DNA of 64,000 nt from the IMG/VR virus record IMGVR_UViG_3300013132_000023, positions 1-64,000 of that record; one strand, given 5' to 3'. The notes under the pieces were generated by a model that saw nothing but the letters and a program-made list of their open reading frames with translations, made no database searches and was not told where the DNA came from. A program made the translations under genes and the position numbers. Numbering within the stretch: the stretch's first letter is position 1; every line of letters begins with the position of its first letter. This document shows positions 9,044-52,614 of the stretch, piece by piece. Source of the stretch: a virus.

Positions 9044-9052
9044 AATACTCTA
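9044..9052 (-). promoter_or_regulatory. candidate late promoter TAGAGTATT (leftward)
   Basis: 11-mer TTAGAGTATTA identical to the plus-strand site at 18633-18643; upstream of the metalloprotease. Confidence 0.6.
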
Positions 9053-9086
9053 AGCTGACAAGCTTAAAAACGGGAAAAACATTCGT

Positions 9087-9095
9087 TGGTGTACT
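9087..9095 (+). promoter_or_regulatory. degenerate candidate late promoter TGGTGTACT (rightward)
   Basis: Two mismatches to TAGTGTATT, at the head of the rightward gene block. Confidence 0.35.
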
Positions 9096-9213
9096 ATCTA
9101 GTACTGTGCCCCCAAGTAAGGGGACACATGCTAAGCGATTCGTTATCCTTCAATCACAAACACCCTACAAGGGATGTTGTGACATCAAACAGGTATTCTG
9201 TCTTCAACTTTTC

Positions 9214-9504
9214 ATGGAAACCATCATTACATCAGAAAAAGACCTCAGGGAGTACAAACATCCCTTTTCGCATAACGTGAGGATGGTACATTTTAAGATG
9301 GTTGGGATTGGTCCTAATACGTTGGCACAAGCAGAGTATCTAGGTGCTAAAGTTTGCGATATTGCCACTATTCAACCTGGATATTTCGTCATTAGCGGCG
9401 ATGGTAACGGCTTGCGACAAGCAATGCATGATTTAGTAGATCGTTTTTGTAACGCCCAGGAGGGGAAACATGAGTCAGAGAATTCGAAGAGCACAGGATC
9501 GTAA
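9214..9504 (+). CDS. hypothetical protein
   Basis: Start reassigned to METIITSEK. Confidence 0.6.
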   Translation: METIITSEKDLREYKHPFSHNVRMVHFKMVGIGPNTLAQAEYLGAKVCDIATIQPGYFVISGDGNGLRQAMHDLVDRFCNAQEGKHESENSKSTGS

Positions 9505-9763
9505 GAACGAGGGTGCAACAATGGCAACTGGTGGTCACGTCGTTCATCATGATCGTGGTGAAACTCCCGTTGTTCGTACGCCACCGTCAAAGGCGACTGG
9601 AGATGTGTCCGGTAATCCGGCTGGTTTTGCACAAGCTTCTCCTTTTTTCAAGAAACTAGAACAAGAGAAGCCTAAGTCAAAAGCCGATGAGAAAAAGGCA
9701 ATTGCCGAGGCTTCGACGCCTGTAAAAGAAGACGAGAAGAAGAAAGAACAAGAAAAAGCTTAA
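9470..9763 (+). CDS. charged low-complexity protein
   Basis: GGAGG RBS; Lys/Glu-rich tail. Confidence 0.65.
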   Translation: MSQRIRRAQDRKNEGATMATGGHVVHHDRGETPVVRTPPSKATGDVSGNPAGFAQASPFFKKLEQEKPKSKADEKKAIAEASTPVKEDEKKKEQEKA

Positions 9764-9767: not shown

Positions 9768-10358
9768 ATGTCACTAGCCGTAGCACCAAGCGGTACTCCC
9801 ACCTACGACGATGTGGCAGGTGTCATTGAAGCTTTAGTACACACAGAGGGGCGAAAATATCCGATCCCTGGGATGGATTTTGAAGATACAGCCCAGGAAA
9901 TTAGGCTTGAATGCGTGCGTGTGTTGAAGTTTTACGACCCAACTCGTATTGGTCCCTCTCCATATAAATTTCTTCAAACGTGTGTACGGAACTTTCTGTA
10001 CAATCAACGTAGAGGAATTTGGGTTCCGAATAACCCTCCGTGCGTTAGATGTCCGTTATGGGACAAAGTACGCAAGACGTGTACTATTGAAGAAGTGGGA
10101 TGCGACAAGATTGTAGAGTATCGAGAGAACATGTCTATTAAGGCAGATCTTAAGAAGCCGTCTACTATTGAAAGTGACGTTCTAGATTCGATTCAAGAAG
10201 CGGAATTTGAAGCAATGCTTTTAGATCAAAGTATACGTCAGGCATTGCCTTTAAACTTGATTGAATACTACGAACGCATGATTATTGGTGAATATATTCC
10301 GGTTCGCATTAAACACCAGATTCGTGACATTGTAACGAGCATAATCAACAATGCCTAA
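9768..10358 (+). CDS. phage sigma70-family-like factor with Cys4 insertion
   Basis: Region-2-like DFEDTAQEIRL...YDPTR...FLQTCVRNFLYN; CVRC-x9-C-x6-C; short C-terminus without a clear region 4 HTH. Confidence 0.75.
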   Translation: MSLAVAPSGTPTYDDVAGVIEALVHTEGRKYPIPGMDFEDTAQEIRLECVRVLKFYDPTRIGPSPYKFLQTCVRNFLYNQRRGIWVPNNPPCVRCPLWDKVRKTCTIEEVGCDKIVEYRENMSIKADLKKPSTIESDVLDSIQEAEFEAMLLDQSIRQALPLNLIEYYERMIIGEYIPVRIKHQIRDIVTSIINNA

Positions 10359-11130
10359 GTCATTTTCAGAAGACCAACGCAATATGGTACGTGAACTTGC
10401 TTCACAGGGCAAGTCACATATGGACATTGCAACGATAATGTCTGAGCGTTTTCCCGCCGATTGGAATGCCAAAAACGCAAATCGTACGGTTGCTCGTATC
10501 ATTCGTGAAGCACAAACTCCTGAAGTCATTCAAGAGAAAGCACTGCCTAAAACGTTAGACGAAATGACTCGCGAAGAGCGTTCTCGTTTTATTGAATCTA
10601 GAATACAGATTACGCCTCGTTTTCGCATGGCGTTTCAGAACTTTACTAACACAGACAAAGACGTATTCATCGATGAATACATGAACGTGGTTCGTTCTAC
10701 AGAAACGCTAACCGAGGTTGAAGAACAAGCGTTGTTTGCTTCAATCCTTGAACTTATTCTAGCTTTTCAAGCCCTCAATCGTAAAGAGAAAGAGGAGACT
10801 TGGCGTGATCAGTCTATGAGCGGTGAGATTCCTGATACTGATCCACGCTATAGACGCATTGTAGACGACAAGTACCAACGCGAATACGATCAGCACATGA
10901 AGCTTTATCAGAAAGGCATGAGCGAATTGAAGATGTCCCGTAAGGACAGACTAAAAGAAGTACGTTCTCACAAACAGACGCTTGTTGATTTGGCAGAGGA
11001 ACTTTCAACCAAAAACGCACAATCCGAAGTAGCAGACGAAATTGAACGTTTGTCAAAACTAAAAGATGGCGAACTTAAGCGTCTGTTAGACCTGGGACAT
11101 ATACATGGTGTGTTTGAGGAATACCTATGA
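10351..11130 (+). CDS. N-terminal HTH plus coiled-coil protein (terminase small subunit or transcription co-factor candidate)
   Basis: FSEDQRNMVRELASQGKSHMDIA HTH-like; helical remainder; overlaps the sigma stop. Confidence 0.45.
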   Translation: MPKSFSEDQRNMVRELASQGKSHMDIATIMSERFPADWNAKNANRTVARIIREAQTPEVIQEKALPKTLDEMTREERSRFIESRIQITPRFRMAFQNFTNTDKDVFIDEYMNVVRSTETLTEVEEQALFASILELILAFQALNRKEKEETWRDQSMSGEIPDTDPRYRRIVDDKYQREYDQHMKLYQKGMSELKMSRKDRLKEVRSHKQTLVDLAEELSTKNAQSEVADEIERLSKLKDGELKRLLDLGHIHGVFEEYL

Positions 11131-12065
11131 AGATTGCAATGCTTTATGCCTCTTGGGAGAACTTCGGCGAGAAGTGGTCTACTCCTTTTGGAATACGACA
11201 AGAACTTCAGTCTCGTGGTCATGAAGTAAGACACTACAACTTGTATCATGATGATGGCATTTTGTTTCCAAATAACATACGACATTATTCCAATCAAGGA
11301 ATTAATCGTTTGTTTCAAGAGTTTTCTGCTAGAACCTTTGTACCCGACGCTATCTTTGTAATGGATTATGGTCCGTGGGACGCAGTTCAATTAGACAAGA
11401 GAAATTTTCCAGGTGTCGTAATTGTCAAAGAATGTGGCGATGAACCACAGTCACATCGTCAGCACTGGAATGCACTTCATCGTGTTCACGTCATGCTTTC
11501 ACCAGACATGCCATGTGTTAGTCGATATCATACTGCTGGATGTCATGCCGTTTACTGGACACATTTTGCAGATACTAGATTGTTCTATCCGCGAGATATT
11601 GCTCCGCAATTTGATTGTGTAACGACATGTGGTCCTCGTGGTAATGGATTAACTGAACAACTCCAAAAGCTGTTAGGTGATCGCTTTAACAATGAGCGTT
11701 ACTTTTATGGCGAAGATCACGCTAAGCGATTACACCTTGGAAAGATGGTATTTCAGTGTTCTCAGTACAAAGAAGTTACTCGTAGGATTTTTGAAGGTAT
11801 GGCCTGTGGTTGTATGGTAATTACTGATCGTTTGCCAGTAGAAACCGGCATGAGCGAAATGTTTATTGAGGGCCAAGATATTGTGTACTATGACAATGCC
11901 GTTGATGCAGCAGAGAAGATTCGTTTCTATGCCGACAACGATGTAGAACGAGAACGTATTGCTCGCAATGGATATAAAAAAGTACTTGCGTGTCACACGC
12001 AGGTACAGCGTGTTGATTTGTTTGAGAATTGTGTTTTGTCAGCAAAGGAAACCTTACTGAAATGA
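11127..12065 (+). CDS. GT-B glycosyltransferase (CgeB/YkvP-like)
   Basis: RIFEGMACG..VITD...F.EG.DIVYY...RERIARNG...HT..QR C-terminal signature. Confidence 0.85.
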   Translation: MKIAMLYASWENFGEKWSTPFGIRQELQSRGHEVRHYNLYHDDGILFPNNIRHYSNQGINRLFQEFSARTFVPDAIFVMDYGPWDAVQLDKRNFPGVVIVKECGDEPQSHRQHWNALHRVHVMLSPDMPCVSRYHTAGCHAVYWTHFADTRLFYPRDIAPQFDCVTTCGPRGNGLTEQLQKLLGDRFNNERYFYGEDHAKRLHLGKMVFQCSQYKEVTRRIFEGMACGCMVITDRLPVETGMSEMFIEGQDIVYYDNAVDAAEKIRFYADNDVERERIARNGYKKVLACHTQVQRVDLFENCVLSAKETLLK

Positions 12066-12592
12066 AAAACTTGATTTTGTTTCTTGCGGCTTTGGCAACT
12101 ATTGTTTCTGTTGTAGTGTTTACATCTAAGACTCCAGCGATTGCTAGCCCTGCTGTTGTTACCGCTGCTATTGTTTCAAACGGTAATCCGTACCTTGGAA
12201 CATCTCCGTCTAGTTTTCCTATGCCAACGGTCGATTGTCCTCCTGGTAACTATTACGTAGACATTAATTGTGCTAAAGCATGTTATGACAAGTATGCACA
12301 GAGAATGTTTGAAATCTATCAAGGTGCTGCTAATGCTTACAATCAGAGTGATTTAAGACGTGTGTCTCAGCTTATCGAAGTAGATAACGCACTAAACGTT
12401 TGTTTGAATGCTAATCCTACCCCGGCTCAAGTTGAGGCATGTGTGCAAGCTGCTCGTGCTCAATACAATCAGATTAATGCCGAACATCAGTCAAGAGTTG
12501 CAGCTATAGCGGCATCTGTAGCTACTGATTCAGCAGCGGCTTTAGGTGACTTTATTGCTTGTGCTGCAAATTGTTGCTATAAAGACCAATGA
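12062..12592 (+). CDS. secreted or membrane-anchored Cys-rich helical protein
   Basis: N-terminal hydrophobic signal; 8 Cys. Confidence 0.65.
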   Translation: MKNLILFLAALATIVSVVVFTSKTPAIASPAVVTAAIVSNGNPYLGTSPSSFPMPTVDCPPGNYYVDINCAKACYDKYAQRMFEIYQGAANAYNQSDLRRVSQLIEVDNALNVCLNANPTPAQVEACVQAARAQYNQINAEHQSRVAAIAASVATDSAAALGDFIACAANCCYKDQ

Positions 12593-13398
12593 CAACTAGC
12601 GAACGCAATCAAGAACTAGGTAAGCCACGTTGGAATTACGATTATCAGTGCTACAAAGACACTGATAACGTTTTTCTGGAACGTGGTTTGTATTCAATTA
12701 TTGTGCTTGCACATGGTCGTCCGGACGTTACTAAACGTTCAGTCTTGTCAACCCTTGATTGCGTTCGCGGTTATTCTGGTGAAATAGAATGGATTTTTAT
12801 AGAGAACGGCAACGATAAGTCTAATCTTGATTTTTTTGATAGTCTTGATTTAGAACGCAAGGTTGTCGTGCGTCAAAAAAACTATGGTATTAACGAAGGA
12901 CTGAATCAAGGCTGGGCTATTTCGCGTGGTGAATTTGTTATGATTCACGAAAACGACTGGAACGCATCTTGTTCAGTTGATTTTTTGTCGATTGCAAACG
13001 ACATTTTTACTGAAAGAGAAGACGTTGGTATCATTCAACTTCGTGATCCTTTTGATCCAAACGAAAATCATGGCTTTGGTAAACCAGAATACAATCCGTG
13101 GTCTTGTTCACGGGATCATGTAGAACGGTCTGGTTTTAAACTTTGGAAAGAGAAAACATCTTGCGGTCATGAATATGACTTAGCAAAGTATCCGAATGGA
13201 TTCAATAACAATCCGGTTTTGATTCGTAAGACATTGTATTACGCTTGTGGACCGTATCCAGAGCCAATCATTGGTTCGGATCCAAGACATGGAGAAACCG
13301 AGTATCAAGAACGTGTAGCAAGAACAAAGTGTTCTATTGCTTACATTGGATTGCCGATATATCGGCATGCTGGACGTGTACAAACACAAGGAGTTTGA
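12589..13398 (+). CDS. GT-A (family 2-like) glycosyltransferase
   Basis: SIIVLAHGR, FIENG, NYGINEGLNQG...GEFVMIHEND (DxD-like). Confidence 0.8.
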   Translation: MTTSERNQELGKPRWNYDYQCYKDTDNVFLERGLYSIIVLAHGRPDVTKRSVLSTLDCVRGYSGEIEWIFIENGNDKSNLDFFDSLDLERKVVVRQKNYGINEGLNQGWAISRGEFVMIHENDWNASCSVDFLSIANDIFTEREDVGIIQLRDPFDPNENHGFGKPEYNPWSCSRDHVERSGFKLWKEKTSCGHEYDLAKYPNGFNNNPVLIRKTLYYACGPYPEPIIGSDPRHGETEYQERVARTKCSIAYIGLPIYRHAGRVQTQGV

Positions 13399-13632: not shown

Positions 13633-14118
13633 ATGGTCAAAGAAAAACCAATACTGATTGTTGACACCAGAGAGAAGACCCCTTGGGACTTTGAAAGTGA
13701 TGATGCTTTCTCTGGTGTCTTGTACACCAAGCTTGATGGTGGTGATTACAGCATTCAGGGCATGGAAAACATCTTGGTTGTCGAACGTAAGGCAACTGTA
13801 GATGAATTGTTTGTGAATTTTACTAAGGATAGAGAACGTATTCGGGCTGAGTTTGAAAGACTCAAAGACCATAAGTTTAGGATTATTGTTATCGAAGAGA
13901 CGTGCGATGACGTTATGAATCCATACAAGTATTACGTAAACAAAAAGGGTATTAATAAGCGAAGTCCAAAAATGCCGGTTGCTGTTGTTGCGTCTGGTCT
14001 CACTAACTTGATGCTTGAACACAACGCAATGGTTATTTTTGGCGGCAGTAGGGCACAGGCTATGGTGCGTGGTATTCTGTTGCGTGCTTGGGAATTGCAT
14101 CAAGCAGGTAAACTATGA
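13633..14118 (+). CDS. ERCC4-domain nuclease
   Basis: VDTRE, GDYS, VERK motifs. Confidence 0.85.
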   Translation: MVKEKPILIVDTREKTPWDFESDDAFSGVLYTKLDGGDYSIQGMENILVVERKATVDELFVNFTKDRERIRAEFERLKDHKFRIIVIEETCDDVMNPYKYYVNKKGINKRSPKMPVAVVASGLTNLMLEHNAMVIFGGSRAQAMVRGILLRAWELHQAGKL

Positions 14119-16157
14119 AGCCGTCTGAGATTCGTAAAATCCGGGGTACACCCTGGAATACTACATGGAGTAGCGATGACGTTCAGGACATTTTTTCTGA
14201 ATGTGGTCCGTTTCATGGATTATACCACATGGCATCATTCAATCTTGCTTGGTTTATTGAAAAGGTGTTCAATAACCAACAAGGCAAACCATTGCGTCTT
14301 GAATCGTTTCAACAGATTATGCTAGATCTTCTATGGAACAAAAAGTTCCCTATGATTCTCGCAACTCGTGGTGCCGGTAAGACATTTATTTTGGCATTGT
14401 ACGCTCTAATGCGAGCCCTTCTTGTTCCTGGTTCTAAGATCGTTATTGTAGGTGCTGGCTTTCGTCAAGCTAAGTTGGTTTTTAAGTACATTGAACAATT
14501 GTACGAATCAAGTCCATTAGTTAAAGAAGCAATCTCACAATGGGGCGGTCCTAAGTACGGTTCTGATGCGGCGACTCTTCGCGTTGGTTTGTCGTCTATC
14601 CAGGCTATTCCTATTGGAGACGGGGAAAAGATCCGTGGTTTGCGTGCTACTGTTTTGATTGCTGACGAATTCGCCTCTATTCCAGAAGACATCTTTGATA
14701 TCGTTATTGCACCATTTACCGCCGTTCACATGAATCCTGCTGAACGTGCTGCTCAAAAACGTTTTGTTGGTCGTTTAAAAGAGCTTGGTGCTGATGATCA
14801 ACTAATCAAAGCTATTGAAAATACACAAGGATTTGGTAACCAGATTGTTATCTCTGGTACGCCAAGCTACAAACACAATCACTTCTATAGACGTTATTGT
14901 GTCTATATGGCTTTCTTGAAGTCTAAAGGCGATGCTGGTCGCCTTAAGCGTGCCCTTGAAGAGCAGCAACTTCAAAGTACTGGTCGATGGCAAGAGATTG
15001 ACGAAGACGACATTAAGCATGCTGAAACAACGTGGAGGCAATATGCTGTTTATCAATTGCCGTACACTGCTTTGCCAGAAGGATTCATGGAAGAAGACAT
15101 CATTCGTACTTCTCGTGCATCTTATCCTGGTCATCGTTTTGCGATGGAGTTTTTGTCGCAATTTCCTGATGATACTGATGGCTTTATTCGTCGATCTTGG
15201 ATTGATAGATCTACGCCTCGTGGTCCAGAACAAATACCAGTTACGGTGGAGTTGTACGGTGATCCTAGAGCTACATACATTATGGGTGTTGACCCTGCTC
15301 GTTGGAACGATAATCTCGGTATCGTTATTCTTAAACTTACTGAACGCGGTAAAGAATTGGTCTATTGTCAAGCGTGGGACAGAACAGAATTTGGTACTTC
15401 GTCACGCAAGATTCGTGAAATAGTTCAACGATTCAATGTGTCGTATCTTGTTATGGACGCTGGTGGTGGTGGAGAACAGATTCGTGAGTGGTTATGTAAG
15501 AAAGTTGATGACGTAGAGCCTCACGAGTTTATTTGGGTTATTCCTGATCAAATGGAAAAGTACACCGGCGACAAAACCGGCATGGCTGCTCCTGGTCGTA
15601 AGATCTTGGAAATGGTTGACTTTACTCCAGCCTGGATTTCACAAGCGGCTCACGGTGTCGAAGCAGACATTGAGCAGGGTAATATTCTGTTCCCATATCA
15701 CGCAGACGACAAGCAAGCATACGAACAATACATGCGTCATTTTCAGTTAGTCACCATAACTGAATCTGAAAAGCAACGTCTACAACATGATTTATGGGGT
15801 ATGGACGATTGGGAAGCAGAGCAAATGTCTGGTCGCAATGGCGAAAAGATTGTGCCTACTTATGGTGTCATGCAAAACATTGACGAATGTCTCAATGAGA
15901 CATGTGCTATCGTTCGCATGGTAAGCACTAAAGGCACTGAGAGTTTCGAGCTACCCAAACTTTCAGAACAGCCGGAAGGCTTAGACATGCGTCGCCGCGA
16001 CCGTTGGTCGGCTTTGATGCTAGCAAATTACGGAGCTAAGGTGTTTTTGGGTACTGGCCATAAACCCAAACCGCTTGTTGGAATGACCCCTAATAAGCGT
16101 CGTCGTACGTCTTATACACAAAGAGGATCACGCGGGCGTGGGTCCGTGAGGTATTAG
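14115..16157 (+). CDS. terL: terminase large subunit
   Basis: Walker A ATRGAGKT, Walker B LIADE, motif III ISGTP, nuclease MGVDPA...RRDRWSA. Confidence 0.9.
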   Translation: MKPSEIRKIRGTPWNTTWSSDDVQDIFSECGPFHGLYHMASFNLAWFIEKVFNNQQGKPLRLESFQQIMLDLLWNKKFPMILATRGAGKTFILALYALMRALLVPGSKIVIVGAGFRQAKLVFKYIEQLYESSPLVKEAISQWGGPKYGSDAATLRVGLSSIQAIPIGDGEKIRGLRATVLIADEFASIPEDIFDIVIAPFTAVHMNPAERAAQKRFVGRLKELGADDQLIKAIENTQGFGNQIVISGTPSYKHNHFYRRYCVYMAFLKSKGDAGRLKRALEEQQLQSTGRWQEIDEDDIKHAETTWRQYAVYQLPYTALPEGFMEEDIIRTSRASYPGHRFAMEFLSQFPDDTDGFIRRSWIDRSTPRGPEQIPVTVELYGDPRATYIMGVDPARWNDNLGIVILKLTERGKELVYCQAWDRTEFGTSSRKIREIVQRFNVSYLVMDAGGGGEQIREWLCKKVDDVEPHEFIWVIPDQMEKYTGDKTGMAAPGRKILEMVDFTPAWISQAAHGVEADIEQGNILFPYHADDKQAYEQYMRHFQLVTITESEKQRLQHDLWGMDDWEAEQMSGRNGEKIVPTYGVMQNIDECLNETCAIVRMVSTKGTESFELPKLSEQPEGLDMRRRDRWSALMLANYGAKVFLGTGHKPKPLVGMTPNKRRRTSYTQRGSRGRGSVRY

Positions 16158-16163
16158 TGTATT
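16155..16163 (+). promoter_or_regulatory. candidate late promoter TAGTGTATT
   Basis: Exact motif; its TAG is the terL stop; precedes the portal gene. Confidence 0.7.
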
Positions 16164-16213
16164 CCCTTCTGGATGATCATATTGCAATTTGATTACCTCA
16201 GGATGCTCTCAAA

Positions 16214-18631
16214 ATGACTAAAACACGCACTAACGCTGCCACGGTACGTCTTCGTCAGGATACTATCGCTAAAATGGCAGATCCCAACGCGATGCTTGGG
16301 GCGGCTACTCGTGCCAATGGCCCTGATAAGTCTCTGGCTTATTTTTATGGCAACATGGGAGATAGCATTGAGCGTCGTTTTAATGGCGATGGCGGAATGC
16401 TTGGAGAAGGAAATGATGGTTTCCAAGGAATCATGGGGGCCGGTAGTTCGTGGCAGGCACAGGGGTTTGGCAACTACTTTGGAAGTGGCTTACTAAACGG
16501 CTTTGGTCGTATGAATTCAGGAGCCCAGGGCGGGACGGGCGGCGGTTTTACGTACTTGCGTCGTTTTTCGTCTAATGCGGCTTTCAATCATTCTCTTATC
16601 GCACAATGCATGATGGCTTATTTAGGCTATGGCGTTGTTCGCAATATCATTGATTTGTATTCTGACTTTGCTACCGAGGGGCTTGAAATTGAGCACCCCG
16701 ACGAGAGCGTGCGTAACTTCTATCGTACATGGGCTACAAAAGTTAAGCTTCGTGATCGTGTGCATTGCATGTTTCTCAATTTGTTCGTTGCTGGAAACGT
16801 CTTCATTCATCGCCGTTGGGCGTCGCTTTCAAACGAAGAAAAGCGTGCCATGAAGCGTTCTAAGTCAGCAGAGAACGTTAAAGATATGTTAGTGATTCGC
16901 GGCAACTCTCGCGATACGACAATTGAAGGGCGTGAAACTGGATTCATCGATTGGTTTTTAAGCCAGAAGGGTGAAATCAATTTGGCCGACGACAGTCAAA
17001 ATGGCAAGGCTATTGCCGAAGCCCCTCCTGCTCCGTCAGAAGAATACACTCCTGAAAATCTTCAAAAGAGAATTCCGTGGGGTTACACGTTCCTGAATCC
17101 CCTGCAAATGGAAATTCGTGGTCGTAAGCTTCGTGGCGATAGTTACTGGATTATGGCCATTGATAAACGTGATACACTTGACATGGCTCGTGGTCTTGGT
17201 ATGCGTAGTTCTTTTAACCAAGAGCTTGGTACTACTGAAGTAAATCTGCCTCGCGAATTCTTGAGTCGCATTCAGTCTTACCAAGGGCCGGGTGCCGGAT
17301 ATTCCGCTGAGGTTAAATTATCGAGAGAAGAATTGATTGTTGTTCAAGCTCCCGGTAAATGGGACTGGTTTGACTGGGCGGTACCTTTCTGCTATCCAGC
17401 CTTGAAGTCGCTTGCATTCAAAGATTGCTTGCGTAACATGGAAATGAAGGCATGTCAGTCTGTTATCAATTCTATCTTCCTTTTCAAGCTTGGTAACATT
17501 GAAAAGGGTATGCCAGCAGAAGATGAACACTTTGAGCGTCTTGCTGATATGTTGCAAATGCCTGGACAGGCTCTTAATATTTTGTGGAATGAGGCTATTG
17601 AAGCAGAAGTAATTCAGGCTGATGTTAAGGGGATTTTTGATACTGGCAAACATGATTCCGTTGACAAGGACATTTTGACGGCACTTGGTGTCCCAGAAGT
17701 TTTGATTGGTGGCAAGGGTAGTAATTTTTCAAACTCTTACGTTGCTGTTGCGACCGTTCTTGAACGTTTAGAGTCATATCGTGAACAGGTGTACGATTGG
17801 CTTTTAAATGAAGTGAAAATTATTGCTGATGCAATGGGTTTTCAAAAGCTTCCTGACATTAAGTTTGGTCGTACAAGTCTTAAGGACGAGAAGGGCTATC
17901 AAGCCTTTTTAACTGGACTTTATGATCGTGGTATTCTGTCTGGTGATACGCTACTTCGTGAAGCTGAAACAACTGCGGAAGTTGAAGCTTCGAAGATGAA
18001 AGAAGAAAAGGATAAGTATCGCGAGAAAGATATCTTCGAACCTAAGGGGCCGTATGTTAAGGATCCTAAGTCTCCTGGTGGTTTGGACAAAAAGTCTAAG
18101 CCAAAAACTCCAAATGGACGCCCTCAGAATTCTAGCACTGGTCCAACCGGCAAGCAGGAAAATCCACGTACGCCTACGGGACAAGGGATTGCTGCTTTGC
18201 TGGAAGCCCAGGAGATTATTTCTCGACGCGGACGCATTGCATTGCAATATCTTGAAGACTTTATTAGTGATCGTGTTTTACAAGCTAAGGCACGCGAAAA
18301 TCCTAATCTCAAGAACGTTAAAAATATGCGTGCAGATGAACGTGAGCGTTTAGAGTGGTTGATCTATAACGTTTTCAGCCACATGCCGCCGCCGCAAGAT
18401 GACGAAGTTAAGATGAATGATGACTTCATTATTAACATGCTTCGTTCAGATGCGTGCGAGACCGTTAAAGTAGAAGTGTTTAATCTCTATACTGACAAGG
18501 TAGCTGATTACAGTAAAACGTATAATAAGGCTCCAACACGCGAAATGCGTCGTCAGTTTATGGTTTCTGCATGGACACAACGAGCAATTATGGAACACCT
18601 TGATCAAAAACCTGACATTCTTCGAATGTGA
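16214..18631 (+). CDS. portal protein
   Basis: Follows terL; VVRNIIDLYSDF, LFVAGNVF, LNPL, ILTALGVPEVLIGG.GSNFS portal-like segments. Confidence 0.8.
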   Translation: MTKTRTNAATVRLRQDTIAKMADPNAMLGAATRANGPDKSLAYFYGNMGDSIERRFNGDGGMLGEGNDGFQGIMGAGSSWQAQGFGNYFGSGLLNGFGRMNSGAQGGTGGGFTYLRRFSSNAAFNHSLIAQCMMAYLGYGVVRNIIDLYSDFATEGLEIEHPDESVRNFYRTWATKVKLRDRVHCMFLNLFVAGNVFIHRRWASLSNEEKRAMKRSKSAENVKDMLVIRGNSRDTTIEGRETGFIDWFLSQKGEINLADDSQNGKAIAEAPPAPSEEYTPENLQKRIPWGYTFLNPLQMEIRGRKLRGDSYWIMAIDKRDTLDMARGLGMRSSFNQELGTTEVNLPREFLSRIQSYQGPGAGYSAEVKLSREELIVVQAPGKWDWFDWAVPFCYPALKSLAFKDCLRNMEMKACQSVINSIFLFKLGNIEKGMPAEDEHFERLADMLQMPGQALNILWNEAIEAEVIQADVKGIFDTGKHDSVDKDILTALGVPEVLIGGKGSNFSNSYVAVATVLERLESYREQVYDWLLNEVKIIADAMGFQKLPDIKFGRTSLKDEKGYQAFLTGLYDRGILSGDTLLREAETTAEVEASKMKEEKDKYREKDIFEPKGPYVKDPKSPGGLDKKSKPKTPNGRPQNSSTGPTGKQENPRTPTGQGIAALLEAQEIISRRGRIALQYLEDFISDRVLQAKARENPNLKNVKNMRADERERLEWLIYNVFSHMPPPQDDEVKMNDDFIINMLRSDACETVKVEVFNLYTDKVADYSKTYNKAPTREMRRQFMVSAWTQRAIMEHLDQKPDILRM

Positions 18632-18633: not shown

Positions 18634-18642
18634 TAGAGTATT
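18634..18642 (+). promoter_or_regulatory. candidate late promoter TAGAGTATT
   Basis: One-mismatch motif between the portal stop and an AAGGAG RBS. Confidence 0.6.
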
Positions 18643-21168: not shown

Positions 21169-21177
21169 TAGTTTATT
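21169..21177 (+). promoter_or_regulatory. candidate late promoter TAGTTTATT
   Basis: One-mismatch intergenic motif upstream of the protease-decoration-capsid unit. Confidence 0.5.
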
Positions 21178-24595: not shown

Positions 24596-24630
24596 GAGGG
24601 CGGGGGGTCGTAGACCTCTCGCCCTCTTTG
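24596..24630 (+). terminator. intrinsic terminator after MCP
   Basis: Stem GAGGGCGGGGGGTC / GACCTCTCGCCCTC followed by T-rich sequence. Confidence 0.8.
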
Positions 24631-24632
24631 CT

Positions 24633-24641
24633 TAGTGTATT
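24633..24641 (+). promoter_or_regulatory. candidate late promoter TAGTGTATT
   Basis: Exact motif directly after the terminator, before the neck genes. Confidence 0.75.
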
Positions 24642-28013: not shown

Positions 28014-28022
28014 TAGTGTATT
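28014..28022 (+). promoter_or_regulatory. candidate late promoter TAGTGTATT
   Basis: Exact intergenic motif upstream of the tail tube gene. Confidence 0.75.
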
Positions 28023-31329: not shown

Positions 31330-31814
31330 AGACATTAGAAAAACGATTTTGGTCTAAGGTTAATAAAGCTTCTGGTGTGTACGGCGATTCCGGATCTTAT
31401 CCTACCGAATGCTGGCAATGGAAAGGGGCTAAAATGGTTTCTGGCTATGGTCACATGCGTATTCGTGGTAAAAACAAACATTCTCATAGGGTGCTATTTG
31501 ATCTTATGGGAAGATCATTACAAACACACGAGTGCGTATTGCATAAATGTGACAATAGGGCGTGTGTAAATCCAGATCATCTTTTTATTGGTAATCGACA
31601 AGACAACGCTAACGATGCGTACGCAAAAGGCAGAAACAAAGGAGCGATTGGCGATGCAAATTTCAACACCAAGCTAACCGAAGAAAATGTACGTGCTATT
31701 CGTGCATCTATCTCTACTGGTGCGACCCATCAAGCAATGGCCGACAGATTTCATGTTTCAAGAACTAGTATTTCAGCTATCGTTAGGGGCAAGACTTGGC
31801 GACATGTCGTGTAG
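31326..31814 (+). mobile_element. free-standing HNH homing endonuclease
   Basis: RFWSKV, CWQWKG, GYG, HR, VLHKCDNRACVNPDHL...N; C-terminal HTH (KLTEENVRAIR...VSRTSISAIVRGKTW). Confidence 0.9.
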
Positions 31815-31820
31815 TGTATT
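31812..31820 (+). promoter_or_regulatory. candidate late promoter TAGTGTATT
   Basis: Exact motif; its TAG is the HNH stop. Confidence 0.7.
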
Positions 31821-40664: not shown

Positions 40665-41298
40665 TTTTCCTGTAATTCGCGTGTTCGAATGGGATACGAC
40701 AGAGATAGCAAGTCCGGTTGGTAACCGTAACTTGCCGGGTGGTTCGTTTGCCTTCAAGAAAATCGTTGCATCCGGATGTGCCACTGCAAATCCTAATTTT
40801 CCTGGCACCACATCGGGAACGTTATTGTTTGAAAACGTAAGGTTTGATCTTACTAATCCGCCTCTTCCATCACACGTAGCTTCAAGAGTAACCGCTATTA
40901 CGTTTAATTTGGCAGCTAGCGGTACAGCAATTTCAGATCTTAGACTATATCTTGTTACTGATTCTGCTTTTCAAGCAGGACAAGATCAAGGACTAGATAG
41001 GGGTTTTATACAGTATGCTCCTAGTGGTAGTTTGTGGTTACCGAATCTCGTATTGGCGTCTGGGGCAGTTGCTCGCCTACCGTTAACTGTTCCTGTTGCT
41101 CCTAACGTACGTCGCCAAGATGGTGGAAATGCCCTCATTGGACAGGACGATGGTAATTCTTCTGAGTTCATTTACATGAATATCGTTGTTCCTCTAGGAA
41201 CTCCTTTGGGGCCTTTTGGCGTATGTGGTTCTGGTCTTTTAAGACTAGGACTAGTGTTTAACTACTGGTCTAATGCTTTTGTATTAGATCTAGGTTAG
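40651..41298 (+). CDS. tail-associated beta-sandwich protein B
   Basis: Start reassigned to MAAGDFP by alignment with its paralogue. Confidence 0.55.
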   Translation: MAAGDFPVIRVFEWDTTEIASPVGNRNLPGGSFAFKKIVASGCATANPNFPGTTSGTLLFENVRFDLTNPPLPSHVASRVTAITFNLAASGTAISDLRLYLVTDSAFQAGQDQGLDRGFIQYAPSGSLWLPNLVLASGAVARLPLTVPVAPNVRRQDGGNALIGQDDGNSSEFIYMNIVVPLGTPLGPFGVCGSGLLRLGLVFNYWSNAFVLDLG

Positions 41299-41304
41299 TG
41301 TATT
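41296..41304 (+). promoter_or_regulatory. candidate late promoter TAGTGTATT
   Basis: Exact motif; its TAG is the upstream stop. Confidence 0.7.
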
Positions 41305-41362
41305 CTTTTTTTGAGACATCGTGTCTCTTCGGACGTTCGAACTTTTCTTAGGAGGTAATGCT

Positions 41363-41548
41363 ATGGCAACTTTCAATGCAACTAGCAGCACCAACAACGC
41401 AAACCAAGTTCTTTGGAGCTACAGCACACGCCTAGTCTGGCACACAGACCGTGATGTGTCTGGTACCAGCCGTGGTGGCGAAGTTGAAGCTGTACACAAT
41501 CTTGGTGTTGGTGTGGCTACGGGTGATCCTTTCACCAATCTACTGTGA
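41363..41548 (+). CDS. 61-aa monocistronic late protein
   Basis: AGGAGGT RBS, own promoter motif and downstream hairpin. Confidence 0.65.
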   Translation: MATFNATSSTNNANQVLWSYSTRLVWHTDRDVSGTSRGGEVEAVHNLGVGVATGDPFTNLL

Positions 41549-41566
41549 TTTTGGGTAGATGAGCTA

Positions 41567-41612
41567 ACTAAGGTCGGGTGCTTAACATGAGCACCCGACC
41601 TTAGTGTATTTT
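41567..41612 (+). terminator. terminator hairpin overlapping the next promoter motif
   Basis: Perfect 16-bp inverted repeat ACTAAGGTCGGGTGCT / AGCACCCGACCTTAGT followed by GTATTTTT. Confidence 0.75.
41602..41610 (+). promoter_or_regulatory. candidate late promoter TAGTGTATT
   Basis: Exact motif built into the hairpin 3' arm. Confidence 0.7.
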
Positions 41613-41655
41613 TAGACATGAGGCGTAGCGTTCGCTTAGTCTCAGGAGCAAGGAC

Positions 41656-42132: not shown

Positions 42133-45100
42133 TCTCATTACTGATGGTTCTCTTGTTGGTTTTTGGCCACTGAACGAGCCGAGTGGAGCACCAATTTGGC
42201 AAAACTATTCCCCTGCTTTTGGTTTTGCTCCTAGTGGTATTGGGCTAGACTTGACGGTTGCTGTTGCAGACGTAAGCAATCTTGAGGAATTTATGTCAGT
42301 GTGGCCTGGGCGTGCCACCGTGTTTAATCCTGAGTCTGGTGTATTTTACACCGGGTATCAAGTGCAAGGAGCTTGGAAAACTGGTACCGATTCGTCTCCA
42401 TTGAGTCGTTATTTAGTAATGGCTGGTGGATCAAGTCGAGGAGCACAACAAATTTGGCAACCAGCCATTGCTAATAGTGGATTCACTGTTGGTTTTTGGG
42501 TATATCCAAATAGCAATGGTAATTTGTCTTTCTACTCTAACATGTTGGCTTCTACTAATTCAGCTATTGAAGCTTGTAGAGCACACACTCTTGTTGGAGC
42601 ATTTCAGTCGAACACGTCTAACGCTGGTTGGCACATTGGTATTTCCGGTGCTATGGATCGTGCAGCACAGTTCAATTTTGATGCTACTGCTGGTAATCAA
42701 TTACGTGCTTTTGCATTCATTGAAAAGACTGGTACTGCTGCTCCAGCAGATTTGTTAAGTGTACCTATTGAATCTGGAAAGTTTACCCATCTTTCATACA
42801 GCTTCCGATTTATCGATGGCGTTTCGAATCAGATTGTTCTTTATAAAGATGGTCATGTTGCCGTTAGTGGGACAACTTCAGCCAGCCTGACGGCAGCTAA
42901 TACAAATCTTATTACTAATGCTTTAGCACGTTCACTTACTGTTGGTGCTTCGGATGATGGAACTACCGCTACAGACGACTATGAACGTACGAGCGGATGG
43001 AATCATCTTGTTTCTGGTTTGTATTTTTTCAAGCGTGTTCTCAATGAAGGAGAAGTGCTTGAAATGCATCAGCGTGGTGGACTACAACCAGCACTTGAAC
43101 AGACTATTGTACCTTCTCCTACACGCCTTACGTCTAGCTACTTGATTGCGTATTATCCATTCATGGAGCCTGGATATGGCGACGTAAGCTCAACGCACTT
43201 GGCAGCTAATTCAAATTACGACGCCGGTTCTTCTTCTGAGCGTGTTTTTGCCCCTGGTCCACATGGTTTTGGTGGTGTTTTCCACAATGGAACAAACACG
43301 TCTAACTATCATGCTGTACCAAGTGGCGTATGCTTTGAAATGCTAGACGGTGGAAGCTGGACGTTTGGTACATGGTGTAGTCTTAATAACGCCGCTAACC
43401 GTGATGATAACATCTTCTTTTCGTGGGGTTCAGTAACTACCGTTACAAATGCAGCACTTGATCCTGCGTCTGCTGCTTTTACAACTAATACTGGCGGCAT
43501 CGTTGGTACTGTAAGTGGTGTAACAAACCAACAAAGAATTGCTATTGAAGTTTATACTCTTGGAAGCAACCGTAATGCTGCCTCTACTCGCGTGTTTAAT
43601 CTTGATGGATCTTTTGAGTATTACAATCAATCATGCTTTCATATTGCCCTAGCTTATGATAATGAAACAAGAGGACTTTCTGTTTTCCTCAATGGTCATT
43701 TAGCACAAAGCGGAACGTTACCTAATTCACTTACCGATCAGTTGCGTCGAATCACTGGTAGTGGATATCCGTTAATGTTTGGAAACGGAGTTCAAGACGG
43801 TATTTTGGATTCTGTGACACGCGGTTTGCATACTGGTGGAGGTATTGACATTTGGCTTGGTCCTTGTTTCATGGCAAATGGTGCTCTGAACACACAAACA
43901 GTACGCGGCATTGCCTTAAGCGGCATTGTTGATCTGTCTTCTATTTATCGCACACGTCATGATCCTCGTCTTGTTGGATATTGGCCATGTAATACCTATC
44001 TACTTTCTGACGTTTTAGTTCTTGATGAAGCACGCGTATGGAGCCGAGTACCAAGTCACTTGGTGCGTGGCGACTCAAGTCCTACGGATGAGCGTTGGTA
44101 TGACGTGGATTTAAATGATGCTGCTGGTAGCGTGTATCGTAATGACGGTACTGCACGCATTGATCACTTTGGAACGCGTACAAATCCTCCGGAGCTTTCT
44201 AGCTATGGTAACCTTGGGATTACTTCTGGTATTTTTGTTGCTAACGCTGGATCTTTAGGAACAGAAGGAGCAACTAATGCTGGTGAGTCTGAGTCGTCTT
44301 ATGGCAATAATTCTATTCGTCACAAGCCGGTAATAGAAACGAGATCTTCGTCAGCACAGAACATTGCGGGCGAGTATATTGTTGCTTTTGAAGTAACTCC
44401 TAGTGGTCGTATTCCGGCAGTAGACACTGTTCGTACTGCGGCAACTACTGCAATTCATACAAATTGTTTACTGTTTGCTATTGGTAATCAAGCTTCATCT
44501 CCAGGAGCGGGTGACGCTTCGTATCATGGTTTCTTGACTTCACTTAATGCTAATAATCCAGATCCGTTGGGATTTGATGCTGGTCTAGGTGGGTCTGGTG
44601 TGATTATTAAGATCATGGGCAGTGAGGATACAATTACTGCCGCTAATCAGATTCCTTTGGTTTCCGGTAGATTGCCTTTTGGAGTACCAAGCAAAGTGCT
44701 TGTACATACCAAATTTGATAATCCATATTTATTCAATGGTATTACTGCTGGTCAATCTTCGTATACTATTAGTCTATGGATTAATGGTGTTTTGACACAT
44801 AGACGTACTTTACCGCACGTCAATTCGCGTGTGTGGTCCGATGGTGTAGTTGAAGATGCTGCTTCTACTGTACTCGTACAGTTTGGTGGCGTTTTGGCAA
44901 GCGACCTATACACTTCTACTGTAGGGTGGCAAGCTGGTTTAGGCGATATCTTTATGCGTGAAATCTTCCTTATGAAGGGAGTTTTCTTAAAAGACGAAGT
45001 TGCAGCGTTGGCGAATAGCGGCATTCAGTCTCCGTCTATTGCTGGTTTTACAAATCAAATGTCTACTACGCAGGTTACAATTGCTGACGCAGACATTCAG

Positions 45101-50100: not shown

Positions 50101-50530
50101 CTCAACGTTAGGTGTTGAGCGTGCTATTCTTGGCGTACAAGTTCTTAATGGTTCTGTTTCAATTGGAGATCGTACTACGCTTGCAGCACAAGGAGATGCA
50201 CCTATTGCTCCAGGAGCAAGCAATGGTACTATCTATGTAGCTGGTACTGTTCAAGATTCTGCTGGTGTTACACCAGTTGAGATTGTTGAAGTAAGCCTTG
50301 CAACTACTGTTAATGCTCGTGCAACTTGCAGAATACTTAACAATAATGGTGTTGTTGTTACGTCTGGTACGTTGTATTCAGATGTAGTACCGATTCCATA
50401 TCCACAGTTTGCTACATCTGGTGATCGTGGTTTCTTAACCAGGGCAACCGTTCCAAGCGGAACGCTTGGTGCTACAGCTCAAGTAAATTTCATTCAGATA
50501 GTAAAGCCAGCATTTATTAGGTACGCGTAA
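47162..50530 (+). CDS. tail tip hub/central spike-type protein
   Basis: 1122 aa; F.FRG.V...V.VED.R and I.QDTGYDWYW hub-like N-terminus. Confidence 0.55.
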   Translation: MNILVSNGVVVSGVGVPLNGIAWPSGQFNSNAPGSQLCAFLSSVNATFGFNVTPHSFQTEWIPCGDSCAFHGASGQLPNIGHPLELFVGDFFFRGRVTHADYTTTTGGTVVGITVEDDRRQLRRVKIHTEDLGEDAPSGVVSIARAYRIVNGLNDLNGDPNDPNIREYRRILQFGGTYNQLLTAIQLHFNQGKCSIAVTELPTAEQLESNIGGTIDALRFQFNLTTLDEAITRILQDTGYDWYWNMDAQRLNLINKKVAFDLSENDILDLVSQFGSASGLNETKQLGFGQDVVPDPTRFRVLGGHQEGFINSHLLSPIDGLDTFGLDGHVNKDVKSSGINIVFTPAWSRLTIGFYDADGFYRTYIPTEKELQLALAGIEQWTYFKIYQTDLTTANPPGFALPVDAGSIAAQHPTFQSRLDPVMPLAAFGTGNEASGIRIISNRRDQEQNWVLSFYSRISDHASRHYGRSYVAEGLLFNEASGLFRLVDAAWANVENQVQGYGLSTSGVVISVGSGVYLEDYEINRALGPISPFVTDDFRVRAYCRLPASTVYGPQGDSNPAGFGNWTEDAPPFNPTGSGDHYIPVQLTLVGNRVEDPRSDELYSFEDYPEGTIWCQLPINAGPSGGLRVDPIIRQLSTLVTTNTKLAGSGLTDIINPAIVLNVYDSLSGVAIPVEARSRYGQTYPGQWVLGDLHYERDEDVQLDDQFVPWAYSPEGNQTSLQIMTDRAIRRVQGKIVPRSSSRYADFQQVGLPLLSFDAFAEQGIGPSGRYGEISHGVSELNISFGIEGFGTRYKIQSYFPKFGREAPLGERVRAQLNGVINPIDFTDLSLLNPLPGNPPDPLLPGDSFLPPIFFDREKRAVRVTITDVTNVFTLGSNPATQEEERYRGLDQNSYYKPPFGFSSSNPDFAKGAICIDGFLNVGDEALYHTDEFELPGGNRVLRYFTQGRPFGNGTIVQIQNVNANDLSAYDVTIVDPTTLSTLGVERAILGVQVLNGSVSIGDRTTLAAQGDAPIAPGASNGTIYVAGTVQDSAGVTPVEIVEVSLATTVNARATCRILNNNGVVVTSGTLYSDVVPIPYPQFATSGDRGFLTRATVPSGTLGATAQVNFIQIVKPAFIRYA

Positions 50531-52608
50531 TGGTTATGCAATCAGGTGTAGTGCCGTATGAGTACGCTCATGGCGGCAGAAGATTTGAATCAAAGCCTAT
50601 CCCGTTGGGCTTGTCTGGCATTTTGCTAGAACAGGCACAGTTTGTAATTACTGCTGAAATTAGAAAATGGATTGGTGATTACTCTGACTTGCAGCCATTC
50701 AATGTATACATCAATACGGACGCTTTGCCATCTGGACAATATGAACCAAAGGCTAATGGTACAACCTTAGACAATGCTCTTAATCCGGGGGCAGTTGTTT
50801 TTGTTGATCACATTTTAGAGTGTCGTGCAGCGTTGAATGTACTCTTAAATTTGTACGAAGCTGACACTGACTTAGACACATATCAATATCGTGCAGGGTG
50901 GCTACAAGCTTTGTTTCCTGAAAGTACGAGTGGATTCATAAATGGCTCTGACGATCAAGCATTTTTCACTGGAATTGGGCATTGGCGACATAGAAGACCA
51001 TCAGAAATTGGAATTATCGATTATGTTTCTGATGAAGTTTTAGGAGCATCTGGCGTCTTATACGATATCGATTTTTCAGAAGTGATGTTCAATCCGGCAC
51101 CACATATTGCTGGTTTGGGCTTTGATGAGGCACATGGACTCAGGGTAAACAATACGAATGATACCTTTGCTATTCAACAATACCCGGTCTTTCCAGCTTT
51201 TCAAAAGACCGATGGCTCTATTATTGATTTGAACGGTAGAGAGCCAGCTAATTTGTCTACATACAGAACGTCACACGTATCGTCTGGAGCGTTGCGTTTA
51301 CATGGATACATGCTGAGACCACAGACGAAACTCATGTTATCTAGGGAGCGTACGTTTGGCAGCGATGTAGACTTTACGATTTTTTCCGAAGGTATTCGTG
51401 CTCCATACAATCCTAATGTACCAACAACGCTTGTCTTTATCACTCCAACTTCACAAGGTAGTGGAGTGTATAGAATTGGTGCAGCTAATAGATTCGTAGA
51501 CTTTCCAAATGCAACTATTGAGTCGGGTATTTTTAGTCACTGGCCACCAATAGAAGTGTATTGGCCTTCGGATCATCCAACAAGCTCTACTACCACTACT
51601 GCCAATGGTGGTTATCATGTCTTTAATGACTGCATATGGATGACAGACGTATCCTTGAGTTCGTCTTTTGGCGGTCCTAACTTTGGATATCCTTCTGGTC
51701 TTGCTGTTTTGTCTCCGTATACAGGACACAGAATGTGGCTTCGTTATGCGGATATGACACCAATAGACATTGATGTTTTTGGAGGCATCAATAAGCGTAA
51801 TTGGGGAACTGGAAAAGGACTAGAGCGTGTTTCGTCAAACAACATCTATCGTGTCGCTCCAATAGTTGCAAAATCAACACCTACCCCTACTTCCGGACAG
51901 TTTGTTTTCGGTTGCTACAATGACAATCTAGATCTTGTAACGACTATCACAACAATTTCATCTTCTCCTAATGGTGACAACCTTTTTCCTCTCGGAGGTG
52001 CAGTCATTTCTCTTAGTGATTTTTGGTTTAACGGATCAAACTACTTTGTTGCCAATGCAGAATTCGTTGGTTTTGATTTGTGGAAATTAGACTCTTCGTT
52101 CAGTTACGTCACTAAGTATGTTTTCAATCGTCCTAGTGGAATACATAATGCAAGAGGAGCTTATGTTAATGGTCAAGATGTTCTATTCTATTTTGTACTA
52201 AACAATGCTCCTGGTGATGCAAATTTTGCTACAAGCGGTATATTTCCAATCAACTTTATTGATGAAGGCAGTGATCCGTTTGATAATTCGGCTAATCTTG
52301 GTCCGGTTGGTGAAGCTGAAATTTCGCCAGCGACCGCAAAATACATCAATGGTGCGGCACAACTTGGTGTAGCTCAGACCGCTGAAATCATGGATCTTTT
52401 TGAAGTAACGTCGTCAACTCACGTTGTTCCTGGTGTTTATGCTATCGTTCGTTTTAAGCTAAATACGAATCCCTTTAATGGTGGCGATTTGTATCTTTTA
52501 CGCTTGCAGGAAACCTCTACGGCTTGGGAAATTGTAGCATTGACGAGACTTGAAACTGCCGTCAATTCTTTTATGCCAAGACGTGAATTACTGTATATGG
52601 GCTATTAG
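50530..52608 (+). CDS. putative receptor-binding tail protein
   Basis: Beta-rich, possibly propeller-like C-terminus; last gene of the tail-tip unit. Confidence 0.5.
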   Translation: MVMQSGVVPYEYAHGGRRFESKPIPLGLSGILLEQAQFVITAEIRKWIGDYSDLQPFNVYINTDALPSGQYEPKANGTTLDNALNPGAVVFVDHILECRAALNVLLNLYEADTDLDTYQYRAGWLQALFPESTSGFINGSDDQAFFTGIGHWRHRRPSEIGIIDYVSDEVLGASGVLYDIDFSEVMFNPAPHIAGLGFDEAHGLRVNNTNDTFAIQQYPVFPAFQKTDGSIIDLNGREPANLSTYRTSHVSSGALRLHGYMLRPQTKLMLSRERTFGSDVDFTIFSEGIRAPYNPNVPTTLVFITPTSQGSGVYRIGAANRFVDFPNATIESGIFSHWPPIEVYWPSDHPTSSTTTTANGGYHVFNDCIWMTDVSLSSSFGGPNFGYPSGLAVLSPYTGHRMWLRYADMTPIDIDVFGGINKRNWGTGKGLERVSSNNIYRVAPIVAKSTPTPTSGQFVFGCYNDNLDLVTTITTISSSPNGDNLFPLGGAVISLSDFWFNGSNYFVANAEFVGFDLWKLDSSFSYVTKYVFNRPSGIHNARGAYVNGQDVLFYFVLNNAPGDANFATSGIFPINFIDEGSDPFDNSANLGPVGEAEISPATAKYINGAAQLGVAQTAEIMDLFEVTSSTHVVPGVYAIVRFKLNTNPFNGGDLYLLRLQETSTAWEIVALTRLETAVNSFMPRRELLYMGY

Positions 52609-52614
52609 TGTATT
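52606..52614 (+). promoter_or_regulatory. candidate late promoter TAGTGTATT
   Basis: Exact motif; its TAG is the upstream stop. Confidence 0.7.

Follow-up and report, generated by a model that had tools for sequence, protein, structure and literature searches.

A strand-specific, single-element promoter-like word in the virion-gene region of an uncultured lake phage, and a phage sigma-like protein that may read it

The window analysed here, a stretch of 64,000 nucleotides that forms the first 64 kb of the IMG/VR virus record IMGVR_UViG_3300013132_000023, carries a nine-base word, TAGTGTATT, with the features of a promoter-like signal that is tied to one strand and consists of a -10 element alone; copies of it precede most blocks of virion genes, here and in related phages. 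Judged from its sequence context, the word is very probably a promoter, and it is most likely read by a phage sigma-like protein, a familiar kind of control signal that is found here in a new phage group. Phage sigma factors with a late promoter class of their own are already known (T4, SPO1, phiEco32), and the closest in working is gp36 of phiEco32. The source genome is a single viral record of 137,177 bp, with 44.6% G+C and a completeness of 87%.

An earlier note on this stretch had listed seven exact copies of the word, and a scan of the window confirmed them, at 16155, 24633, 28014, 31812, 41296, 41602 and 52606, all on the plus strand. The note's argument that chance would hardly produce them was borne out by dinucleotide shuffles of the window, in which the mean was 0.50 copies and none of 100 reached seven. 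All seven are located at gene boundaries on the coding strand, as had been claimed. Across the whole genome, nine exact copies were present on the plus strand and none on the minus strand, and eight of the nine lay at co-oriented gene boundaries. Such boundaries, taken up to 120 nt from a start codon in a gene set of our own crude calls (164 genes genome-wide), comprise 0.96% of positions and hold eight of the nine copies (binomial P = 7 × 10−16). The ninth copy, at 84761, lies within an oxidoreductase gene, where it encodes K-I-V-Y-C, and it is kept in the relative G002 and lost in the relative G004; for these reasons it is regarded as a coding by-product. At four of the seven window copies (16155, 31812, 41296 and 52606), the upstream gene ends in the TAG of the word. 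The one-mismatch copies that the note had named were also found (TAGAGTATT at 18634, TAGTTTATT at 21169, and TAGAGTATT on the minus strand at 9044-9052). As a class, copies with up to one mismatch were not enriched in the window (23, the seven exact ones included, versus 16.9 expected, with 23 reached in 7 of 100 shuffles), and among those checked of the 13 further one-mismatch copies, the ones at 19427, 25737, 29629, 42337, 42475 and 51554 were intragenic.

Oriented word counts pointed to the same element. The top word of the regions upstream of plus-arm genes was TAGTGTAT, with 8 occurrences versus 0.14 expected, and in 266 upstream regions pooled from three genomes TTAGTGTA ranked first, with 28 versus 1.47 expected; it was followed by CTTGACA and (G)TATACT, which are sigma-70-type boxes, and by tRNA words. 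The consensus is a ten-base word, tTAGTGTAtT. In a matrix of 35 boundary sites from the three genomes, no position from -45 to -2 exceeded 0.20 bit, in line with the note's statement that no -35 element is shared. In the same matrix, the base directly before the word is biased (T in 27 and G in 7 of the 35 sites) and the five bases 3' of it are A/T-rich. The word stands 0 to 176 nt before the start codon. One-mismatch variants were found upstream of genes in 23 of 101 cases in the three genomes, versus 4.4 expected. By changed position, the upstream share was 0/12 for position 1, 1/23 for position 2, 1/10 for position 6 and 1/8 for position 7; by variant, it was 3/7 for TAGAGTATT, 4/5 for TAGTTTATT and 1/4 for TAATGTATT.

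The strand preference was also observed in relatives, where the earlier note had proposed to look for the word. In five close relatives, TAGTGTAYT occurred 54 times in the forward and 5 times in the reverse orientation, against 13 and 6 for the reversed control. In five more distant relatives the counts were 17 and 8 (control, 7 and 4), and in 14 loci around distant homologues of the sigma-like protein encoded at 9768-10358 they were 17 on the plus and 4 on the minus strand (control, 2 and 2). Two junctions were aligned across relatives. At the post-capsid junction, 20 rows were compared, three pairs of which are identical. The word is kept directly 3' of a hairpin in 14 of them; in two others the copy is displaced or has one mismatch, and in the remaining four it is absent. 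Around it, the sequence varies in stop codon, spacer and hairpin alike, and the hairpin itself is retained with altered stem sequences. At the terminase-portal junction, for which 15 loci were compared and three dropped for want of an anchor gene, the word is present in all 12 relatives with both anchor genes, six times as the terminase stop and six times in free spacer. These footprints argue that selection acts on the word itself.

Orthologous junctions in G002 and G004 carried a copy with at most one mismatch within 200 nt upstream in 10 of 11 and 7 of 11 cases, respectively (about 17 of 22, versus about 0.4 expected). Exact copies are present in both genomes at the 41296 and 52606 junctions, and at the 41602 junction in G002 (two mismatches in G004). 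The 31812 junction has TTGTGTATT in G002 and a two-mismatch copy in G004, the 18634 junction has TAGAGTATT in G002 and TAGTGTAAT in G004, and at the 21169 junction the variant TAGTTTATT itself is retained in all three genomes. At the 9044-9052 site, L008 and L009 retain the complementary word AATACTCTA. At G002 27588 and G004 73325, the orthologues of the window gene at 18663, the word ends 7 nt before the start codon inferred by tblastn; if transcription starts 7 nt downstream, these messages would be leaderless or nearly so.

The surroundings of the copies are those of transcription units. The two strongest terminator-like hairpins found by a terminator scan of 23001-43000 (24596-24626 and 41567-41605) end at copies of the word, and the 89934 copy likewise lies directly 3' of a strong hairpin, as read from the sequence. 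The genes downstream of these hairpins therefore need a new transcription start, and between the post-capsid hairpin and the start codon the word is the sole conserved element. Given the hairpin and host-type promoter at 53398-53459, the 52606 copy would serve one gene only. The virion region is poor in sigma-70-type promoters (15 versus 29.6 expected), which are abundant on the minus arm (TTGACA, 16-17 nt, TATACT), and one also precedes 87302. The possibility that the word is the U-tract of intrinsic terminators was rejected, since a hairpin abuts three of the nine exact genome copies (24633, 41602 and 89934) and none abuts the other six.

In the mechanism that we propose, tTAGTGTA(T/c)T would be the single-element promoter (a -10 plus an extended -10 element) of late, mostly virion-gene, units in this clade. 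A phage-encoded sigma, carried by the host RNA polymerase core, would bind the word aligned as T(-15) A G T(-12) G(-11) T A T T(-7), with melting from about -11 through the A/T-rich bases beyond. Transcription would begin some 7 nt past the final T, and each unit would end at an intrinsic terminator or continue into the next copy. The likeliest reader would be the 9768-10358 protein, which has a cysteine cluster in place of region 3 and no recognisable -35-reading helix-turn-helix. Host sigma-70-type promoters (TTGACA, 16-17 nt, TATACT) would serve the replication block and the early genes. Two canonical sigma factors, encoded at 64272-64931 and 102757-103269, would be made from units with host-type promoters and might in turn activate the 9768 operon through its unique promoter, giving a cascade. 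For the proposal as a whole, comprising the single-element late promoter, the 9768 reader, the host-type early promoters and the possible cascade, we see an even chance that it is correct.

The earlier note had described the 9768-10358 protein as containing region 2 and apparently lacking region 4. The first part was upheld, as 53 of 79 family members match Pfam Sigma70_r2 (best E = 1.1 × 10−11). The second stood at the level of sequence, with no match to Sigma70_r4 in any of the 79 (E ≤ 0.01), but not at the level of fold, where the modelled C-terminal domain looks sigma-4-like. The family profile matches the sigma-2 domains of extracytoplasmic-function (ECF) sigma factors only (CnrH, E = 3 × 10−6; SigW, E = 7.8 × 10−6). 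A model of the full protein (pLDDT 89.3) superposes on the sigma-2 domains of 8b3z_C (Z 9.4, rmsd 2.4 Å, 73 residues) and 4ki2_B (Z 8.4, rmsd 2.0 Å, 66 residues). In a Foldseek search of this model against the PDB, no row reached E ≤ 0.001; the top rows were all sigma factors (best E = 0.034). For the C-terminal domain folded alone (pLDDT 82.9), the best rows were mostly sigma-4 domains with middling Z scores of 6.7 or less, among them 6dv9_F (Z 6.7, rmsd 2.4 Å, 60 residues) and 3mzy_A (Z 6.6, rmsd 1.8 Å, 57 residues). The 9768 protein aligns with the two other phage sigma factors over sigma-2 only, with no alignment over sigma-4.

Between the two domains lies a near-invariant cysteine cluster (residues 88-112, NNPPCxRCxxWDK...C...CxK). 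Conservation in the 79 sequences is 90% or more for C92, C95 and C112, C105 is invariant in the closer 14, and the four cysteines may bind zinc. The family consists of viral proteins of about 200 amino acids, with 190 close homologues and 164 cluster representatives, so far from viral sequences only. A tblastn search of 50,697 phage records gave no match to the 9768 protein; two distant family members had no match among cultured phages either, and for the distant members P0150 and P0129 in viral contigs, patterns were matched and no relative was confirmed.

The earlier note had not recognised the motif among described late promoters. This does not hold, since TAGTGTATT equals the phiEco32 element tAATGTAtA at seven of nine positions (PMC8948821). 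The middle and late promoters read by gp36, with gp79 as its co-factor, are described in the accessible text of that source as a single element with no conserved -35 element and starts 6-8 bp downstream. In the phiEco32 complex, recognition of -14A, -13A and -12T takes place in duplex DNA, and melting begins at -11G (PMC12276001). T-12, G-11, T-10 and A-9 are common to TAGTGTATT and the gp36 element in that register, whereas position 3 (-13) is G here and A there, and position 9 is T here and A there. Because TAGTGTATT fits the register, a start about 7 nt after its last T is predicted. Both systems have a single element near -15 to -7 without a conserved -35 element (here in the 35-site matrix), and in both phages early genes are on host sigma-70 promoters.

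The likeness extends to the layout of the candidate reader, a protein of about 200 amino acids in both cases. By cryo-EM, gp36 has a sigma-2-like N-terminal domain and a compact sigma-4-like C-terminal domain that sequence searches do not recognise (PMC12276001). On the models, the 9768 protein likewise looks not to be without region 4, but to carry a compact, divergent version of sigma-4, as in gp36. The gp36 chain 9m7y_F matched the C-domain model with a Z of only 4.3. No specific homology to gp36 was detected, either for the 9768 family profile (hhalign probability 22.7%, 45 columns, sigma-2 only) or for the two other phage sigma factors (BLASTP E = 0.66 and 8.9). Further differences are that phiEco32, a 77.5-kb E. 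coli podovirus, has one phage sigma and this clade three, and that the accessible text of PMC8948821 and PMC12276001 describes for gp36 no cysteine cluster such as that of the 9768 protein. Among the matches listed by a full-text literature search, whose coverage excludes subscription journals, no paper describes the word as a promoter.

Exactly three sigma-2 frames are present in the genome. A search for an RNA polymerase beta gene found none in it and matched 14 of 14 control genomes; a T7-type polymerase (PF00940) also gave no match, and as the control genomes were equally silent this is uninformative. The proteins encoded at 64272 and 102757 are clear members of the sigma-70 family (TIGR02937, 53.4 and 62.6 bits, respectively, versus a cut-off of 42.9; Sigma70_r2, 42.3 and 37.8 bits), and both show a canonical sigma-4 helix-turn-helix. 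The assignment of the word to the 9768 protein, as made in the earlier note, stood in so far as this is a real sigma-2 protein; with two clearer sigma genes outside the window, it is one of three candidate readers. That one of the phage sigma factors reads the word is probable, and we have slightly better than even confidence that the one in question is the 9768 protein. It is favoured because the word has no -35 element, because it shows the highest conservation among the three (identities in relatives of 61-72%, versus 48-55% and 44-54% for the other two), because its gene is located at the head of the plus arm, just before the virion genes, and because the cysteine cluster sits where an extended -10 reader would sit.

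Several observations weigh against this interpretation of the word and its reader. The 9768 protein itself falls below threshold (Pfam region 2, 16.4 versus 24 bits; NCBIfam, 16.2 versus 42.9 bits). All three sigma-like genes are present in five of five close relatives, and among distant relatives three sigma-2 frames were found in four of five and two in one record that is 49% complete; the trio is kept down to 36% identity of the 9768 protein. As the three occur together in every record of sufficient completeness, their presence or absence does not single out one of them as the reader of the word. The compact C-terminal domain in phiEco32 still contacts the -35 region (PMC12276001); with a sigma-4-like domain in the 9768 protein as well, the argument from a missing region 4 to a -10-only promoter is weaker than it seems. 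The 64272 sigma has a region-3-like middle (NCBIfam FliA/WhiG match, residues 12-142) and could also read a long -10 element. With regard to the word, the boundary statistics depend on the crude gene calls, and the 28014 copy is not kept at the orthologous junctions of G002 and G004 (best copies, three and four mismatches). A sequencing-run search found the sequence in four lake-water DNA runs and in no RNA run. Finally, "late" may have to read "middle and late", because some copies would drive non-virion genes, a dCMP deaminase gene in the minus block from 8977 among them.

The alternative that fares best retains the word as a late promoter and makes the 64272 or 102757 sigma its reader, with the 9768 protein reading another promoter class or acting as a co-factor. 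Both proteins belong clearly to the sigma-70 family and are kept in the five close relatives, both lie in host-type-promoter units, as expected for a factor made before the late genes, and the FliA-like middle region of the 64272 protein recalls FliA-type sigma factors, which read long -10 elements. However, both carry the canonical sigma-4 helix-turn-helix, yet the sites hold no -35 information, and both are less conserved than the invariant word would suggest. We consider this alternative unlikely.

Considerably less probable is recognition of the word by a host holoenzyme, containing the primary or an alternative sigma, that is aided by a phage activator or sigma-remodelling protein in the manner of T4 MotA/AsiA. 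TGTATT equals TATAAT at four of six positions, and a candidate would be the conserved helix-turn-helix gene 10351-11130, which is translationally coupled to the 9768 gene. Against this, the word has G at -11 (T in one variant) and never the A that primary sigma factors need, no second conserved box is present for an activator, and the phage has three sigma-like genes of its own.

A role of the word in RNA, as a processing site, 5' stabiliser or operator of a translational regulator, would fit its restriction to the coding strand, its intergenic position and its occasional placement 7-20 nt before a ribosome-binding site. It is very improbable, because the word directly follows strong hairpins at 24633, 41602 and 89934, where most transcripts would end earlier, and because the start-codon distance varies; there is also no common structure around the word, and it is followed by A/T-rich bases of the kind expected where DNA melts. 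Chance, or a by-product of coding or stop-codon usage, was rejected and is practically out of the question: TAG is a stop codon in the four window copies and a conserved peptide explains the 84761 copy, but these points are outweighed by the shuffles, the strand counts in the five close relatives (the bias extends across 10 related genomes) and the terminase-portal junction, where the word is kept as a non-stop in six relatives.

The phage-read late promoter favoured here was also compared with other described systems. In T4, late promoters carry TATAAATA at -10, and their reader is gp55, which acts together with gp33 and the sliding clamp. A promoter of the T4 gp55 type was rejected for the present phage, as the enriched word is TTAGTGTATT and not TATAAATA. 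Common to both is a -10-only late promoter with a small phage sigma-2-type protein as reader; however, gp55 is without a sigma-4-like domain and needs gp33 and the clamp, whereas in the 9768 protein the modelled C-terminal domain is sigma-4-like. The gp55 chain 7d7c_F matched the 9768 model with a Z of 8.3, but with an rmsd of 9.8 Å over 118 residues. The large Bacillus phage SPO1 has several phage sigma factors (gp28, then gp33/gp34) and host-type early promoters, a likeness that suggests a temporal cascade; its promoters, however, are bipartite, and for the lake phage a cascade is only inferred. In Salmonella phage 7-11, a phage sigma, gp47, reads late promoters that head late operons, as here (PMC8948821). 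In the text available from that source, these are bipartite (GTAAtg-16-aCTA) and gp47 has a recognisable region 4; the present promoters have one element and the candidate reader no recognisable region 4.

In its most detailed form, the proposal would be a three-sigma cascade in which the last sigma belongs to a new subfamily. In place of region 3, a four-cysteine knuckle that probably binds zinc would recognise TTAG (-16 to -13) as duplex; TGTATT, with G at -11, would be left to sigma-2, and the reduced sigma-4-like domain would do no more than grip the flap tip. The phiEco32-type single-element promoter would then have arisen a second time, independently, with convergence on an almost identical word. 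We regard this form as tentative and rather doubtful. The findings provide a predicted regulatory map, with early host-type promoters, late phage-type promoters and terminators, for widespread large uncultured freshwater phages, and they define a family of sigma-like proteins of about 200 amino acids that is so far viral only. Should the 9768 protein indeed be the reader, promoter and sigma would together form a compact orthogonal module, and the nearness of the word to that of phiEco32, with no protein homology, would be a case of convergent promoter design.

The head of the 9768 operon (9063-9095) is present in one copy per genome and is kept in G002 (17242) and G004 (61986). From its sequence it looks like a distinct, possibly middle, promoter. 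A unique, conserved operon head suggests that another factor turns the operon on, which would amount to a cascade. Pooled word counts yielded no other promoter class for the two canonical sigma factors, and 9063-9095 is the only other candidate. The two small genes that follow it (9214-9504 and 9470-9763) had no family match in profile searches. The gene at 10351-11130 is next after the sigma-like gene in 16 of the 21 relatives' loci, and its family matches HTH_23 in 4 and HTH_38 in 3 of 17 members. No PHROG or Pfam terminase match was found in the 17 members. The protein may serve as a small terminase, or it may act together with the sigma-like protein; a complex prediction for the two gave a score of 0.00 (mark 0.32), which counts neither for nor against.

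By the crude gene calls, the genome has minus arms at 434-8977 and 97084-132851 and a long plus arm at 9283-97087. No near-identical DNA was found among cultured phages, and among their proteins the best terminase match has about 25% identity, while the capsid matches Bacillus phage G alone (26%). On this sequence comparison, no cultured phage in the collection searched is close to the 137-kb phage. The relatives are uncultured viral contigs only, of 125-183 kb. The features discussed are listed in Table 1.

Table 1. Copies of the word, terminator-like hairpins, other promoter-like elements and genes (window positions unless stated otherwise).
Feature	Position	Strand	Remarks
TAGAGTATT	9044..9052	-	66 nt upstream of gene 8234-8977, head of minus block 8977-434
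Promoter-like head of 9768 operon	9063..9095	+	CTTAAAAACGGGAAA then TGGTGTACT; putative function
Two small genes	9214-9504, 9470-9763	+	Upstream of 9768 gene, same operon; in 14 and 9 of 21 relatives' loci (tblastn)
Sigma-like protein, 196 aa	9768..10358	+	Sigma-2, about residues 12-85; C92, C95, C105, C112; C-domain, about 140-196
Gene of 259 aa	10351..11130	+	8-nt overlap with end of 9768 gene; weak helix-turn-helix at N terminus, remainder long and helical
Large terminase	14115-16157	+	PHROG/Pfam matches
TAGTGTATT	16155..16163	+	Candidate promoter of portal gene 16214-18631; TAG is large terminase stop
Portal	16214-18631	+	PHROG/Pfam matches
TAGAGTATT variant	18634..18642	+	20 nt upstream of gene 18663-19565
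TAGTTTATT variant	21169..21177	+	12 nt upstream of gene 21190-23037; heads block ending in major capsid
Major capsid	23533-24573	+	Assigned from 26% match to Bacillus phage G head protein
Terminator-like hairpin	24596..24626	+	14 pairs then TTTGCT, 3' of major capsid gene; best in terminator scan
TAGTGTATT	24633..24641	+	20 nt upstream of gene 24662-25534
TAGTGTATT	28014..28022	+	76 nt upstream of gene 28099-29511
TAGTGTATT	31812..31820	+	34 nt upstream of gene 31855-32616; heads tape-measure block; TAG is HNH endonuclease stop
Tape measure	33223-38418	+	PHROG/Pfam matches
TAGTGTATT	41296..41304	+	58 nt upstream of small gene 41363-41548
Terminator-like hairpin	41567..41605	+	18 pairs; 3' arm overlaps first bases of next copy; second-best in terminator scan
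TAGTGTATT	41602..41610	+	45 nt upstream of gene 41656-42132; heads large-tail-protein block up to 52608
TAGTGTATT	52606..52614	+	88 nt upstream of gene 52703-53368
Terminator-like hairpin, then sigma-70-type promoter	53398-53424, 53432-53459	+	TTGACA, 16 nt, CATAAT; precedes replication genes; read from sequence
Replication block	after 53509	+	UvsX-like, DnaB-like, primase, PHROG "DNA polymerase" (E = 3 × 10−277)
Canonical sigma-70-family gene, 219 aa	64272-64931 (L001:272-931)	+	Outside window
Canonical sigma-70-family gene, 170 aa	102757-103269 (L002:18757-19269)	-	Outside window

The portal leader (16176-16205) contains an element, CAAT..AT(T/C)GC(A/G)AT.TAAT, with a palindromic core, 12-17 nt 3' of the word. 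By eye, it is common to most of 13 terminase-portal junction sequences, and from its sequence it could be an operator or leader hairpin of the portal gene. Genes for HNH and homing endonucleases interrupt the order of core genes (window 31290-31814 and 55643-55945; L011 17125-17586); in one relative, a gene of this kind separates the promoter word from the portal gene. Several glycosyltransferases and nucleotide-sugar epimerases were identified (window 11127-13398; G000 64928-67980 and 78762-80779). The early arm carries 26 tRNA genes (G000 115992-133475), with rIIA/rIIB-like, PhoH, peptide deformylase, MazG, RNA ligase and tRNA nucleotidyltransferase genes as neighbours.

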